In this document: one piece after another, positions 735-47,606 of the stretch | Position numbering within the stretch: position 1 is the first letter of the stretch | How the letters are laid out: each line of letters begins with the position of its first letter | NCBI GenBank assembly: GCA_964016885.1 | Contig: OZ024740.1 | Span: 183,210,001 to 183,274,000 of the forward strand | DNA: 64,000 nt | Direction of reading: 5' to 3' | From: Eledone cirrhosa | Lineage: Eukaryota | Notes under the pieces: generated by a model | What the model was told of the DNA's origin: nothing | Seen by the model: only the letters and a program-made list of their open reading frames with translations | Databases searched by the model: none | Translations under genes and position numbers: made by a program

Positions 735-1532
735 AATATATATATATATAAATATATATATATATAAATATATATATATATAAATATATATATATATAAA
801 TATATATATATAAATATATATATATATAAATATATATATATATAAATATATATATATATAAATATATATAAATATATATATATATAAATATATATAAATA
901 TATATATATATAAATATATATATATATAAACATATATATATATAAATATATATATATATAAATATATATATATATAAATATATATATATAAATATATATA
1001 TATATAAATATATATATATATAAATATATATATATAAATATATATATATATAAATATAAATATATATATATAAATATATATATATAAATATATATATATA
1101 AATATATATATATAAATATATATATATAAATATATATATATATAAATATATATATATAAATATATATATATAAATATATATATATATAGAAATATATATA
1201 TATAAAAATATATATATATATAAATATATATATATAAATATATATATATAAATATATATATATAAATATATATATATAAATATATATATATAAATATATA
1301 TATATATAAAAATATATATATAAATATATATATATAAATATATATATATATAAATATATATATATATAAATATATATATATAAATATATATATATAAATA
1401 TATATATATAAATATATATATATATAAATATATATATATATAAATATATATATATATGAATATATATATATAAATATAAATATATATATATAAATATAAA
1501 TATAAATATATATATAAATATATATATATATA

Positions 1533-1596
<64 letters not shown>

Positions 1597-1610
1597 TATA
1601 TATATATAGA

Positions 1611-41333: not shown

Positions 41334-41365
<32 letters not shown>

Positions 41366-41366
41366 G

Positions 41367-44300
41367 TTCTTTGAGTCTCAGTCATTGATGTTATTTAACT
41401 GGAAAGTTTGTTGAAATGAATATCAAGCCACTACCTGCAGCCTCAGATATTCAGGACGTATCGGAGGGTTCTTGCTGTTCCCAGCAAGCATGCTTTTTGA
41501 AATGTTGCAAAAGTGGGGCGAGACCAATTTTCTTTAACCATCCTTGGAAACTCTTTGAGATAGCACCTAGTGCGCCTATGACAATCGGGACCACTTTGAC
41601 TTCATGGCAGTTCCAAATCCTTTTTACCTCCCACTTTAAGTCCTGGTATCGGTTAATTTTCTCCCTCTCCTTCTCTTGCACTCTTGTGTCGAATGGGCAG
41701 GCTACATCCACAATCAGGCACGATCTTTTTTCTTTGTCCAAAACCACCAGGTCAGGTCTATTGTGTTCCAGTTTCTTGTCCGTCTGTATCCTAAAATCCC
41801 ACAGCACCTTCACCTGATCGATTTCTATCACCGACTCTGGCTTATGCTCATACAACTTCTCAGAATGTGGTAAATTGTTTACTTTGCATAGATACCAGTG
41901 GATCACCCTGCCCATCACATCATGTATCCAGCCTTTATAGGGAGTCTGGGCTAGGTGTTTAGACTCGGATACATACAATGTGAGCCACAGTCTCCTCTCT
42001 CTCCCTCCACAGATCCTACACAGTGGGCTAGCCTATTCCTTGTAAATATGGTGTTTCAGCCACTTCAGTTTGAGGGCCTGCTCTTGCGCAGCCATTAGCG
42101 TTCCTTCTGTAGCCATTTTAAGGTCTACTCTTTTCAACCAGTTCCATGTCTGTGGATCTCTGAATTCAGTTTTCTCAAAGAAGGTATTATGAAGGGATTT
42201 TTCATGAAGGTTACTCTTTCTCGTTTTTGTTATTTCCTCCTTGGACATCCCCTGGTCTATTGTCTTCTCCTTCAGTACAATTCTGAGCATTGGCTCCCTC
42301 CTATCAGTCACGTATTTGTGTAGGTTGTTTTTCTCCATCTGAACACAGTCTTCTATGCTGATAAGACATCTTCCACCTTCAGATCTCCTTAAGTAGAGTC
42401 TATCGACATCACTCTTCTTGTGGAACATGTTGTAGATAGACAATAGTTTCCTAGTCTTCCTATCCATTTCTTTTTGTTCAGCTTCATTCTATCTCAGAAT
42501 TCCCGCACTGTACCTAATAATATACACAGCTCGGGAATTTACTGCACTTATGGCATTCCTACTGTTCAGATGTGACTTTAATACGCTCGTTACTCTCCGA
42601 ATGTATTCAGATCTAATCAATTCCTTCATTTTTTTTGTTATTGATGTCATCAGCCTCCAGAACACCTAAATATTTGTATACATCTTCAGTGTCAATTTCC
42701 TTTATCATATCACCTGTTGGTACCTGGATTCCGTTGCTTCTGCTAAATTTACCCCTCTTCATCACAAGGACTCCACACTTACTAATACCAAATTGTATAC
42801 ATATATCATTGCTGAAAATACGGACAGTGTCAACAAGCACATCCAACTCCTTCTCACTCTTCCCGAAGAGCTTAAGATCGTCCATGAAAAGGAGGTGATT
42901 GATGGTAAGCTCTCCCTTTCCCAACTTGTATCCTGCTCTCACTTTTCGCAGTATAATGGTCAGGGGTATCAGGGCAAGGACAAACAACAAAGGGGACAAA
43001 CTATCTCCCTGGAAGATACCTCTCTTTATCTTCACGCCCCCCAAGGATTCTCCAGCCGATGTTAACTCTGTTTTCCAGGACTTCAGACTTTTGCTCAACA
43101 ACTGTCTGATTTTATCTGCTACCTTGAAGATCACTAAGCTGTTGGTGATCCAAAAATGAGGTAACATGTCAAATGCCTTTTTGTAGTCTATCCATCCCAT
43201 GGCAATACCAGCGTGTCTCCTCTTGCAATTCCTCTTTACCATATTATCAATAAGTAACTGGTCCTGTGTACCACGGGACTTCTTTTGGCATCCATTCTGT
43301 TCGTCCGGTAACAAGTTGTTTATGTGGAGGTGATGGTAGATTTCCTCAGACACAATGCTTGTTAACAGTTTCCACATTACGGACAGACATGTGATAGGTC
43401 TATAGTTGGTAACATACTAACCCTTGATACGGTCTTTCATTACCAGAACTGTGGTATCTTTTGTCAACCACTCTGGTACCTCACCTGACATCAAGCAGTC
43501 ATTGAACATGGTTGTCAGTTTCAGGTGGAGGGATGTTATATTTTTAATCCATTACTCCTGCACACCATCTGGGCCTGGTGATTTCCAGTTGGTTAGTTTT
43601 TTGGCCTGCCCCTTAAGAGTTTCAACTGTGATACTCAAATCAGTTTGTTGGTGTGCCTGTTCACTAATCTCCTTTTGTACTGTCTCAATCCACACTGCTT
43701 GATCATTATGTTTAACATCCTGCTCCCATATTCCGCTCCAGAAAGTCTTAGTTTGTTCCGCCTCAGGGATCACGTCGTTGCCTCTTTCTTTCCCTTCAAG
43801 CTGTCCAAACAACATATTCTGGTTGTTGTCAAACATGCGGTTCTGTCTATACTGACTGATTCTGCTCAAGTATCGCCTAATCTTTGCACTCTTTGCTACA
43901 ATGCGTTGCTTCAGTTCCTCTATGATAATATTTAGCTTTTTCCTCCTAGTTTTGTACTTTATTTCCAGTCTATTTTTAGTGTCTATGTTTTTTTAGTGTC
44001 CCATTCAGTAGGGACTCAAGCTTTCCAACGTCATTTCTCATTTCCCTGATTTGACCACTCAGTCGTTTCTTCCACCAAGGTTCTGATCTTTCTTGTTTGT
44101 TGTTTCCTCTCGCTTTTATGCCAAGTAATTTCCTCACCGCATTTGCTGTTGCTTTGAGGATATTGTTGCACTGGTGAAGGCTCCTCGCCTCAAGGTATGG
44201 GATGACTTTGTTTATCTTAGCTATTGTTTCTTTTAACTTTTTCCTGTCTACAAATCTTAGGTTCATAGGTTTCCTACTATCATTGTTCATTTCATCTATC

Positions 44301-45075
44301 ACTAAGTTTAGGATATCAACCAAATCTTGTCCTAGCCCGTCAGCATTCATTTCATCAATGGCCGTATCTTTGTTCCAAATATTATTTATTTCAGCATTTT
44401 GCCTTTCATCCTTACGGGGTCGATAAAATAAAGTACCAGTAATGAACTGGTTAATTGCTGGCCTTGTGCCTAAAGTAGAAACAATTATTTGTTTCAGCAT
44501 TCAGATCCTTGTCTGCTTCGGATGGTTCCTCCGTTCTCTCAACGTCTGCACCTTCATTTCCCACTGGCTCGTTTGCCTGGCATACTCCACTCTCCATTTC
44601 CAACCTAATCTCTCTGCTCAGTTCCTCCAGTTCCAGCTCGCTTCTCCACCCATTAGTTCTTATTACCCGAGCCTGCCCAGCCAATTCTTGTTCATCTAAT
44701 TTAAATAGACCAATCTCGTCCCAGATGTTATGCATCAGTTTCCTATAGCCTTTTTCCTTGGGGTTACTCTTCAGGTAACATTGCATAACAGTTCTATTCA
44801 ATTCTTTCATACAGTTGGTTCTGGCCCCTTTCTTTCTTCTTCTTCCTCCAACACCAGTAGTATTTGTATGACAGCCAGGTCCCTGCTGCTAAGCCAGGGA
44901 GCACCTGCTGGGTGAGAGTGTGTCACATGGCATTCCAGTCTCCACTTCAGCGTGATTCGAACTGTTTAGGTTCGACATTTAAGCACTCATATCGAGGATT
45001 GGTGAATGTATGGTTACATAACTACCGGTGATTTCATCACCCCCGGTGACTTTAGCGTGGCACCATCACGCTGTA
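41367..45075 (-). mobile_element. R4/Dong-type RLE retrotransposon, near full length, degenerate
   Basis: ATG at ~44978; N-terminal KELNRTVMQCY...GYRKLMHNIW; WKSPGPDGVQ; WIDYKKAFD; GIFQGDSLSPLLF; HLLFMDDLKLF; YKYLG; AAQEQAL; RLE RPDLVV...DVACP; (TAA)n tail. Dong elements are known TAA-repeat integrators. Confidence 0.93.
44397..44490 (+). mobile_element. SINE family A 3' half inserted in the Dong-like ORF, with TSD
   Basis: Core plus tail; flanked by attatttatttcagcatt (44381-44398) and attatttgtttcagcatt (44484-44501). Confidence 0.9.
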
Positions 45076-45389
45076 GACGAACATAAATAAACAAACAAAC
45101 AAATAGATAAAAACCTAAAGGAACAAAAATAAACATAAGTTTCATTGTAATGTTTGAATGTCTGACTTAGTTTTTTTTTCTTTTTTTTTTTTGTTTCTTT
45201 TTCTCCTTTGCGTTTTTTCGTTTTAGAAGGCCAGTAACATCGGTTACTCCTGTTGTTGTTGCTGCTGCTGCTAAGGGAAGTAGGGGTTGTTGTGTTCAAA
45301 CTTTTCAAATTTGTGTTTGTTGTTGCGTTTCCTTCTGTCTGTGTTCTGTTCTATAATTTTTCGATTATAGTTTTTTCTATAATTTTTTT

Positions 45390-45488
45390 CCTTTCATCCC
45401 TACGGGGCCGACACCACAAAGCACCTGCAACACACCGGAACAATTGCTGGCCCCGTGCCAAAAGCAGAAGCAATTATTATTATTATTA
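45390..45488 (+). mobile_element. SINE family A 3' half with T>C hypermutation
   Basis: Collinear with the family core and tail, but 12 consensus T positions are C. Confidence 0.85.
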
Positions 45489-45534
45489 TATAGTTTAGAT
45501 TTGGCATCGTTTAAACTAAACATTTTGAAAGAAT

Positions 45535-47606
45535 AATTCAAGATTTTAGCCAAGATGCTAGCAAAGAGGTTGGCTCTTGTCGTTTGTGGTCTGGTGGGAG
45601 AGGCGCATACATGTGCCATTCCAAACAGATCCATCCACAACAACCTCCACCTCATGCGATACATTGTGGCGAGGGTAGCTAGGGAACCTGGCACGGGTGG
45701 GTCCTTGATCAATTTAGATCGTTCGAAAGCTTTCGATAGGGTCGACCATCATTATCTGGCGGCAGTCGTGAGGGTGGCTGGATTTGGGCCCGTCTTCAGA
45801 GGCTGGATCGTTGCCATGCACAGCGACATCTGCTCTGTGGTGAGAGTGAACGGTCACCTTTCAGAACCGTTCAACATCATGCGCTCGGTCCGCCAAGGAT
45901 ATCCCCTCTCGTCCCTTTTGTGCGTATTGACTCTCGAGCCATTACTGCACAAACTGGAGACGTTGAGGGGGGTCCCGCGCGAACTAGGATGCGGAAGATC
46001 CGTGTCAGCATATGCGGACGATGTCACCGTAGTATGACGAACGCCAAACACATCGAGGCGATCGGAACTACACTAAGATAATACGAAGCGGTGACAGGAG
46101 CAATGATCAACCAGGAAAAGTCAGTTGGCCTGCAGCTCGGCACATGGAGAGGCAGGTCCATGCCACCCAACAGCGTCGTCGGGCGCTGGATGGACGGACC
46201 AGTTACATTGCTAGGAGTCTGGTTCGGTCCGGACCTTCAGACGGACAAAAACTGGGACGAGGTGACGAGCAGGGTGGCTTCTCTCACCCAGAAATGGGCA
46301 GAGAGGCAACTATCCCTGGAAGGTCGAGCGGAGGTGGCGAATGCGTACTTTGTCCTAAGCCTCGCCTAACTGCGCTGGAGCGTTTTCTCTTTCGCTTTTT
46401 GTGGAAGGGATGCGCTCCGATGGTCAAGCGGTCCATCTGCTGTCAACACCCGCTACGTGGAGTGCTGGGCATGCCGTGGCTGATGATGCGCAGACACGCG
46501 CTCAGGCTACAATATCTCCACCTCTTCCTCGACGGTGATCAGGTGTGGTCTCCGTTTGCTAGACACGTATTTCCCCAGCTCGTCTCCTTGACGGAGCTGC
46601 AGTCCTGGGTCAAGCGAAGACCGAGAGGGAGCGCTTGGAGACTGGAATGTCTTCAGCCACTCATGGCCCTCGACTAGTCGGGAAATGTGAACGGTTGAAA
46701 CTCCAACTTGGCCTTCTATAAAGGATTAGTGGAGGGGGAGAGCGACGTCGTACTTGGGGAAACTCTAGGCGTCGACAAAAATCAACTAACCAATCTCTTC
46801 GGTAGAACTTTCGGACCGGGGCCCATGGACAATTTCCAGAAATCCCTGGCCTGGCAGTGCTACCAAGGAGCTTTGCCACTTCGGGATAAACTCTACAGTC
46901 ATGGAAATGCCGTCAGCCGCGCATGTCTGAGATGCGCGCAGGGCGACGAAACCGTCCTGCATGCACTTCTCAAGTGTCAGAGCATTGCTGACTTGTGGGT
47001 TTATGTCGAACACCTGCTGTCGCGTGTAGAACGGATCCGGCTATCAGCTGAGTCCATCATGAGGATTTCCAGCCCTCTTCCTTTAGCCGGGAAGGGTAGG
47101 CAGTTTTTATCTGTCTGGTGGCAATGGCGAATGAGATAGTATGTTGGACGCATCTGAAAGGGCTGAAGACGAGCACTTACCTCTTCAGTGATGCCCTGAT
47201 TAACTTTTTCAAATTTCATTTAAAAAGGAAAATCAGGGTAGAGAGGGAAGATCTCCTCTCCCTGAATGTTGTTGAAAGATGGGTGAGAGAGAGGCAAGAA
47301 TGGCCCGAGTGAATGGGCCTACTCTGAGTATATGCCTGTAAATTGAAGGTGGAAAACTGAGAGAGGGCATTTTCCCTGGTGGTCAGGGTCACCGGGGCTT
47401 TATAATGGGCTTTCTCCACGATGGCCCTCGGAAGTCTCCCCCCTTTTGGGGAATTTTTCATTGTTCTTTTTTTGTTACATCCTCTGTTTTTTTTGTTTTG
47501 TTTACACGCAGAAATGCCCATTTGCACCGTCCTGTATTGTCCTGTACTGTCCTTAATGTCTACTTTGTGTAAACCCTTGTGGTTAATAAAGAAAGCATTA
47601 TTATTT
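45535..47606 (+). mobile_element. Tx1-clade element, 5'-truncated (RT to 3' end)
   Basis: KILAKMLAKRL, DRSKAFDRVDH, VRQGYPLSS, SAYADDVTV, CLRC...H...C; AATAAA + ATTATT. Confidence 0.92.

Follow-up and report, generated by a model that had tools for sequence, protein, structure and literature searches.

In the 64,000-nt stretch of Eledone cirrhosa DNA analysed here (contig OZ024740.1, positions 183,210,001 to 183,274,000; hereafter the window, numbered from its first letter), a 5'-truncated short interspersed element (SINE) lies antisense within the 5' untranslated region (5'UTR) of a likely Dong/R4-like long interspersed element (LINE), a retrotransposon without long terminal repeats (non-LTR), and carries a dense cluster of T>C changes. 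This raises the question of how so many changes of one type came to be concentrated in a single short segment, and whether they record, as an earlier note on this DNA had proposed, an ADAR-edited RNA written back into the genome. Since the SINE is antisense inside the LINE 5'UTR, T>C on the plus strand corresponds to A>G on the LINE RNA. Our analysis indicates that the cluster very likely originated through ADAR hyper-editing of the retroelement RNA, with reverse transcription fixing the edits in the germline before the edited copy was amplified.

The focal copy belongs to the commonest SINE family of the window. As a yardstick we used 72 hits of this family, the focal one included, from 464 kb of DNA (the window and 40 stretches of 10 kb), with the column majority of the 71 ordinary hits as reference. 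Compared to this reference, the focal copy shows 17 differences over 86 conserved columns, 12 of which are T>C, in agreement with the count of the earlier note. Among the ordinary hits, T>C makes up 63 of 648 differences, with zero to three such changes in each of the 59 ordinary copies with at least 60 columns, and the probability of at least 12 T>C among 17 differences is 3e-9 for the focal copy. Raw DNA reads of three other samples with the same species label show the C state of the changed sites, at position 45431 for instance in 21/21, 20/23 and 8/8 reads, so the base-calling artefact that the earlier note had itself considered does not explain the pattern. On the minus strand, the 5' neighbours of the 12 sites are U6, C3, A2 and G1 when read against the family majority; the U7, A2, C2 and G1 reported earlier are recovered if the source was an A-variant at column 141, which is found in 14 of 55 ordinary SINE copies and in all basal LINE copies.

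The edited segment is an integral part of the LINE. As claimed before, the minus strand is the sense strand of the Dong-like element, whose open reading frame (ORF) lies on it. The 5' end of the element, placed about 320 nt downstream by the earlier note, instead lies 585-627 nt past the SINE in all 10 full-length copies that were measured, and the copy of the window is cut at 45532; the SINE thus lies inside the LINE, and the interval 45075-45390, for which a separate unedited source locus had been envisaged, is LINE 5'UTR.

A genome search with the C-rich segment gave 40 of 40 scored hits at 93-100% identity, and a degenerate 26-mer matches at least 85 places; this pattern, as well as the four-TA-site pattern used below, selects for T>C. 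The same LINE is present on both sides of the C-rich SINE in 30 of 30 loci, and 18 of 20 further loci lie in the LINE UTR, the other two having different change sets. In addition, 11 LINE copies carry a bare (ATT)n tract without the SINE, and the corresponding empty-site joint, 45364 to 45474, is also present in contigs of sequencing run X1. Contigs of four other organisms cover parts of the SINE and almost none of the LINE flanks, and were not used.

To place these copies in order, a tree was built from the flanks only (79 copies, 1690 columns; 10 of 89 copies with fewer than 900 aligned columns were left out), duplicate loci having been removed by hand before the SINE comparison, the tree and the scan for UTR clusters. 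In this tree the empty-site copies fall outside the SINE-bearing clade (support 0.87), the copies most like the ordinary SINE stand at the base of the clade, and the window type lies in a derived clade (0.994). The stem of the SINE-bearing clade amounts to 0.011 changes per site in the flanks versus 11 of 86 in the SINE. Relative to the ordinary SINE, the basal copies show 11 T>C and a single subfamily variant, and in one of them (L086) all 11 differences are T>C (P=7e-12). This founding burst spans SINE columns 117-173 (~57 nt) and comprises 11 of the 12 focal T>C changes; the twelfth, at 45400, and four other changes were added later in the lineage, the former being placed on the basis of SINE column 109, where 25 of 70 hits have T and 44 have C (a set, also used for the 5' neighbours, that was not fully de-duplicated).

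Taken together, the empty sites and the basal copies with their 11 T>C indicate that the C-rich state is derived and arose in one burst. The earlier note had held that an ancestral C-rich subfamily would speak against editing: the variant is indeed multi-copy, which by itself would suit such a subfamily, but the empty sites and the nested tree make the C-rich state derived, and the editing reading thus survives the multi-copy finding. An independent C-rich subfamily, moreover, would be expected to have unrelated flanks, and was rejected on the shared LINE flanks given above. All examined copies share a single LINE site, which 11 sister copies have empty, divergence from the SINE grows with distance from the root, and older related SINEs of the genome keep T at the burst columns. 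With C present in the raw reads of other samples, we give next to no credence to the C-rich form being either an ancestral subfamily or an artefact of assembly.

The founding burst is not an isolated event. Next to the first SINE lies a later, full-length one whose only departures from the family at invariant columns are 13 T>C (six pattern matches). In a sub-lineage of 20 matches, 13 T>C fall within ~120 nt of non-SINE UTR and were built up in nested stages, and a second non-SINE cluster of four to five T>C in 9 nt is common to 16-23 copies. A search for four of these same TA sites, on the other SINE variant, gave 48 matches, 30 loci of which were fetched; 20 of these (17 places) represent a parallel LINE branch that stems from the empty type and bears two more independent SINE insertions, whose SINEs have nested T>C sets of their own with copy-specific additions. 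Outside this LINE, an edited antisense SINE lies directly 3' of a GIY-YIG ORF, on both arms of a large inverted duplication, in a Penelope-like setting. T>C accounts for 21 of 23 differences in L269 and for 11 of 15 in L250, and single-type A>G clusters reach 11/11, 13/13 and 21/23. A scan of 101 LINE copies revealed no linked cluster of opposite type, and, as a control, zero to two T>C were counted in each of 43 other SINE hits from LINE loci. One apparent cluster at UTR columns 298-361 proved to be the second SINE, mis-projected, and was not counted. The L269 locus is the nearest case to the one-off model of the earlier note, and the CAG-rich tract between its two SINEs may consist of edited TAG repeats. 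Part of the 5'UTR is duplicated internally in some late LINE copies (L025, L036, L043, L046 and L154); in L025 and L036, only one of the two repeats is edited.

A strand-symmetric process, such as GC-biased conversion or selection for a fold of the 5'UTR, would place all changes on T with probabilities of 1e-4 and 3e-3 in the first two events. The fold does have something to recommend it, as the predicted pairing with a C-rich UTR segment is strengthened from about -18 to -39 kcal/mol by the burst, and slightly further by the later four changes. However, 12-21% of 1000 random draws of 11 T>C are equally stabilising, and pairing with the sense SINE RNA is hardly weakened. Conversion or fold selection as the origin of the burst is hence largely refuted, and its probability is in our judgement negligible; selection may nevertheless have acted on which edited copy became master. 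Given that the edits neither stabilise the fold to any special degree nor much reduce pairing with sense SINE RNA, we assign no function to the scar, which is probably a mutational footprint. Escape from SINE-guided silencing was considered and found unsupported: pairing with the sense SINE lies between -140 and -146 kcal/mol once the burst has occurred and between -136 and -165 kcal/mol in unedited copies.

The most telling evidence comes from a repeat unit of ~1 kb present at four places (L272, L273, L285 and L295, ~1290-1575), with a flank motif that may resemble RTE leaders. Here a full SINE is directly followed by an inverted, truncated SINE, forming a fold-back of ~95 bp (z=-13), and a single DNA strand bears the changes of both arms: in SINE sense, one arm has 8-11 T>C and no A>G, the other 12-17 A>G and zero or one T>C. 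In the long inverted arm, changes affect 52 of 109 adenosine sites in the paired stem but 4 of 67 outside it (one shared site; p=1.5e-9), and the sets of changed sites differ by 5-7 sites between copies. Changes on one strand, in both arms, almost only in the stem and as a new set in each copy are what ADAR action on an RNA hairpin before reverse transcription predicts.

These observations also bear on a change of one strand at the DNA level, be it by a polymerase patch, a TpA-type mutator or ADAR acting on the DNA of a SINE-RNA:DNA hybrid; error-prone polymerase patches and ADAR deamination of DNA in RNA:DNA hybrids are both known mechanisms. In its favour, the T>C of the focal copy lie on the strand where a hybrid with sense SINE RNA would place them, the sense strand of the SINE; the founding span has all 6 of its 6 TA steps changed, and L250, L269 and L297 have no identified retroelement carrier. 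We nonetheless regard such a process as very unlikely: the inverted fold-back arm is changed A>G on the SINE sense strand, and only where a partner arm exists, two clusters lie in non-SINE UTR, the second event has 10 of its 13 sites in AA rather than TA, the opposite strand is unchanged within the spans, and neither free SINEs nor SINEs inserted singly into LINE copies show such changes. TpA-type hypermutation of duplex DNA, confined to TA and affecting both strands, was rejected on the single changed strand and the many AA and CA sites.

The sequence context of the changed sites further agrees with ADAR. In the first three events, the proportion of changed adenosines on the RNA strand by 5' base is 13/18 for U, 14/21 for A, 9/23 for C and 1/9 for G (U/A 27/39 versus C/G 10/32, p=0.002; 5' G alone, p=0.011), and in six further events, leaving out the searched-for sites, it is 45/69 after U/A versus 12/50 after C/G (p=1e-5). 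In a survey of metazoan editing, 5' U/A is favoured and G disfavoured in all metazoans tested (PMC9989829). The host has an ADAR2 gene, seen as an exon whose catalytic motifs CHAE, PCG and SCSDK are intact, with 95% identity to Octopus vulgaris ADAR2; four loci match the adenosine deaminase family (C6:13.64 Mb, C1:146.4 Mb, C1:320.7 Mb and C25:17.35 Mb), the one on C6 being ADAR2. APOBEC editing, which leaves G>A on the sense strand of a retroelement, was discarded, the changes on that strand being A>G.

Alternatively, the LINE reverse transcriptase alone might produce bursts of A>G errors. Such an origin fits the direction of change on the RNA template strand and the dispersed ORF changes described below, among which A>G is prominent. 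Yet the bursts end at duplex borders with nearly untouched flanks and occur in at least two unrelated carriers, and, by our own reasoning, slippage would copy the 5' neighbour and so need a 5' G, which is depleted. We consider this origin of the clusters very improbable, even more so than a change at the DNA level.

Outside the clusters, we analysed changes along the lineages of the LINE, a lineage change in the ORF being one shared by at least 8 of 69 copies. Of 70 dispersed changes of this kind, 31 are A>G on the RNA, and they favour the ADAR context, with 23/508 after 5' U/A versus 4/526 after C/G (p=1e-4), both at synonymous sites (12/154 versus 2/113) and at non-synonymous sites (11/354 versus 2/413). 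ORF changes present in one or two copies, which postdate insertion, show no such bias (152/508 versus 150/526). A strand test at the level of sub-lineages gave 47/608 versus 10/354 (p=0.002) on a set that includes copies fetched by the T>C pattern. The tests reported here are uncorrected for multiplicity, which matters in part for the dispersed changes and not for the cluster and fold-back results, and reverse transcriptase error is a fair rival for the dispersed ORF changes. On balance we lean, by a modest degree, towards a broader view in which ADAR acts as a standing heritable mutagen of retrotransposons in the octopod germline, responsible for at least 10 bursts and for about one-fifth to one-quarter of the substitutions that define successive LINE masters, amino-acid changes included.

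Returning to ADAR editing followed by reverse transcription, the following course of events can be put forward. The first step was the antisense insertion of a truncated SINE at the (ATT)n tract of the LINE 5'UTR. In the LINE RNA, this segment would have become double-stranded by pairing either with free SINE RNA in sense orientation or with an inverted SINE carried on a host or read-through transcript; ADAR would then likely have hyper-edited the RNA to inosine over the ~57 nt of the founding span, and the LINE's own reverse transcriptase likely copied the edited RNA into germline DNA, reading inosine as G. The edited copy would have founded the lineage now present at 85 or more places, with the window copy as a late member. 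The proposal of the earlier note, that an edited transcript was reverse-transcribed and integrated, is therefore well supported in its core, ADAR-type editing and then reverse transcription; a single write-back of an antisense or read-through transcript is not, as the segment is integral to the LINE 5'UTR and was amplified with it. SINE hits in the LINE loci L001-L112 are antisense to the LINE in 138 of 142 cases, and, with SINE tails of (ATT)n and LINE tails of (TAA)n on their own strands, repeated antisense landing of SINEs in the LINE is to be expected, which would renew the substrate for editing. In the predicted UTR fold of L031:830-2026 (minus strand), the edited SINE is paired with the C-rich segment in which editing occurred subsequently; the substrate of the second burst may have been provided by the first.

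Several points weigh against this reading. The editing is read from genomic DNA, and inosine is inferred from it. The double-stranded state of the focal segment is putative: inverted SINEs lie 4-6 kb away at the one locus checked, which, together with the prevalence of antisense SINEs, makes a cis or trans partner plausible. Among the loci fetched there is no LINE copy with a still-unedited SINE at the focal site, the T-form junction pattern being too unspecific for such a search (702 matches). Two of the 30 loci of the four-TA-site search are chance matches with no T>C outside the pattern, and a shared antisense SINE that travelled with the LINE (five copies) has no T>C among 11 differences, showing that editing is not obligatory. 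Avoidance of 5' G alone is not significant in the six further events (5/18 versus 52/101, p=0.08). For the dispersed changes, the group-level strand test outside the SINE gave 16/653 versus 8/346 (p=1.0), the strand bias in the ORF was 31/1227 versus 10/719 (p=0.11 at 8 carriers, 0.02 at 5), and that at synonymous sites only had p=0.11. Finally, L1 RNA in human cells is reported to be unedited by ADAR1 (PMC5224506).

The features on which the analysis rests are collected in Table 1. The assignment of the window element as Dong/R4-like, which we consider likely, is based on the class of its reverse transcriptase, on the C-terminal PD..D motif, seen by eye, and on the (TAA)n target. The RPD..D motif we take to be the restriction-like endonuclease motif. 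The (TAA)n target is seen at the LINE 3' end in the window, and (TAT)n-like tracts follow the 5' ends in most of 18 loci. A homologue search with the reverse transcriptase returned almost only unnamed proteins and no useful names, and Rfam gave four weak matches on 44300-45700, none near the gathering score. The truncation point of the LINE is adjoined by an unrelated plus-strand reverse transcriptase fragment with zf-RVT (45537-47139), and the site at 44398-44489 is a hotspot of SINE insertion, used with differing junctions in at least six other LINE copies (L026, L029, L031, L034, L053 and L057), all unedited there. The SINE family is left unnamed: a MetaSINE domain was considered for its core and dropped, as the part of the supplement of PMC4824008 that was covered shows another sequence, and a likeness to BivaCORE-SINE2 is short and too weak to use.

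Table 1. Features of the window and, in the last rows, of other loci carrying edited SINEs (locus-internal positions).
Feature	Position	Strand	Remarks
(TAA)n after LINE 3' end	41336-41365	-	on LINE strand
Dong/R4-like (likely) non-LTR retrotransposon copy	41366..45532	-	broken ORF; 5'-truncated at 45532
C-terminal part of LINE ORF	41451..42032	-	RPD..D motif, by eye
Reverse transcriptase part of LINE ORF	42613..43416	-	Pfam RVT_1, E=1.9e-22; nearest solved structures are R2 proteins
Ordinary SINE in ORF of the LINE copy	44398..44489	+	0 differences/86 columns; internal unedited control
Remaining LINE 5'UTR	44890..45532	-	holds the SINE; ~600 nt longer in full-length copies
Focal 5'-truncated SINE	45386..45478	+ (sense)	antisense to LINE RNA; 12 T>C = A>G on LINE RNA
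Focal T>C sites	45400, 45408, 45412, 45417, 45422, 45428, 45431, 45436, 45441, 45453, 45454, 45465	+	
Four later non-T>C lineage changes	45414..45470		on the plus strand: A>C 45414, A>C 45415, A>T 45426, A>G 45470; not present in basal LINE groups
(ATT)n tract	45474..45492	+	SINE tail and target tract; stands alone in empty-site LINE copies
GIY-YIG ORF	L262:1634-1996	minus	same locus as L270/L271
Two edited SINEs, ~800 nt apart	L269, oriented 551-609 and 1390-1572		7 and 21 T>C
Older SINE variant with T>C cluster	L250, oriented 1374-1553		beside inverted SINE copy
Older SINE variant with T>C cluster	L297, oriented 1338-1600		beside inverted SINE copy

Overall, these results provide direct genomic evidence that A-to-I edits enter inherited DNA by way of non-LTR retrotransposition, repeatedly, and in a lineage best known for RNA editing. 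As several edited copies founded new masters, ADAR would have shaped the evolution of the LINE and not merely restricted it. The scars allow germline ADAR activity, its context preference and its timing to be tested from genome sequence alone, and they call for caution in studies of RNA editomes, where DNA copies of edited repeats can mimic hyper-edited reads. Should the broader view of ADAR as a standing mutagen hold true, the genome would preserve a fossil record of germline RNA editing that can be dated, and RNA edits would have a working route into DNA. No paper describing ADAR scars fixed and amplified in non-LTR elements was found in the open-access literature, and subscription papers or closed supplements may hold one.

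Several known systems are related. Elements of the Dong/R4 group (PMC3812793), present as Dong in octopus (PMC9115989), likewise have a single long ORF, a reverse transcriptase nearest to R2, a C-terminal endonuclease motif and insertion into (TAA)n; the edited, SINE-bearing 5'UTR of the window LINE does not feature in the passages on Dong that were consulted. Hyper-editing by ADAR in metazoans (PMC9989829) likewise produces one-strand A>G clusters in double-stranded repeats, favouring 5' U/A and disfavouring 5' G, with a weaker preference for 3' G as here; there it is a difference between RNA and DNA, whereas the octopod scars are fixed in genomic DNA, inherited and present in many copies. 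APOBEC scars in LTR retrotransposons (PMC4866542, PMC2873906) are similarly clusters of a single, strand-biased type left by a deaminase and fixed in copies, but consist of G>A from deamination of cDNA and are confined to vertebrates, in contrast to the A>G found here; that screen scored G>A in LTR elements with C>T as control, found invertebrates devoid of such scars and does not mention ADAR in its main text. A further parallel is offered by the ADAR-linked A-to-G hypermutation of the avian retroviruses RAV-1 and ALV (Felder 1994; Hajjar and Linial 1995, cited in PMC8586724), in which edited retroelement RNA also passed into DNA by reverse transcription. Those viruses are exogenous and the cases isolated, whereas in E. 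cirrhosa the carriers include a non-LTR element of an animal germline, the process occurred at least 10 times, and edited copies became masters.
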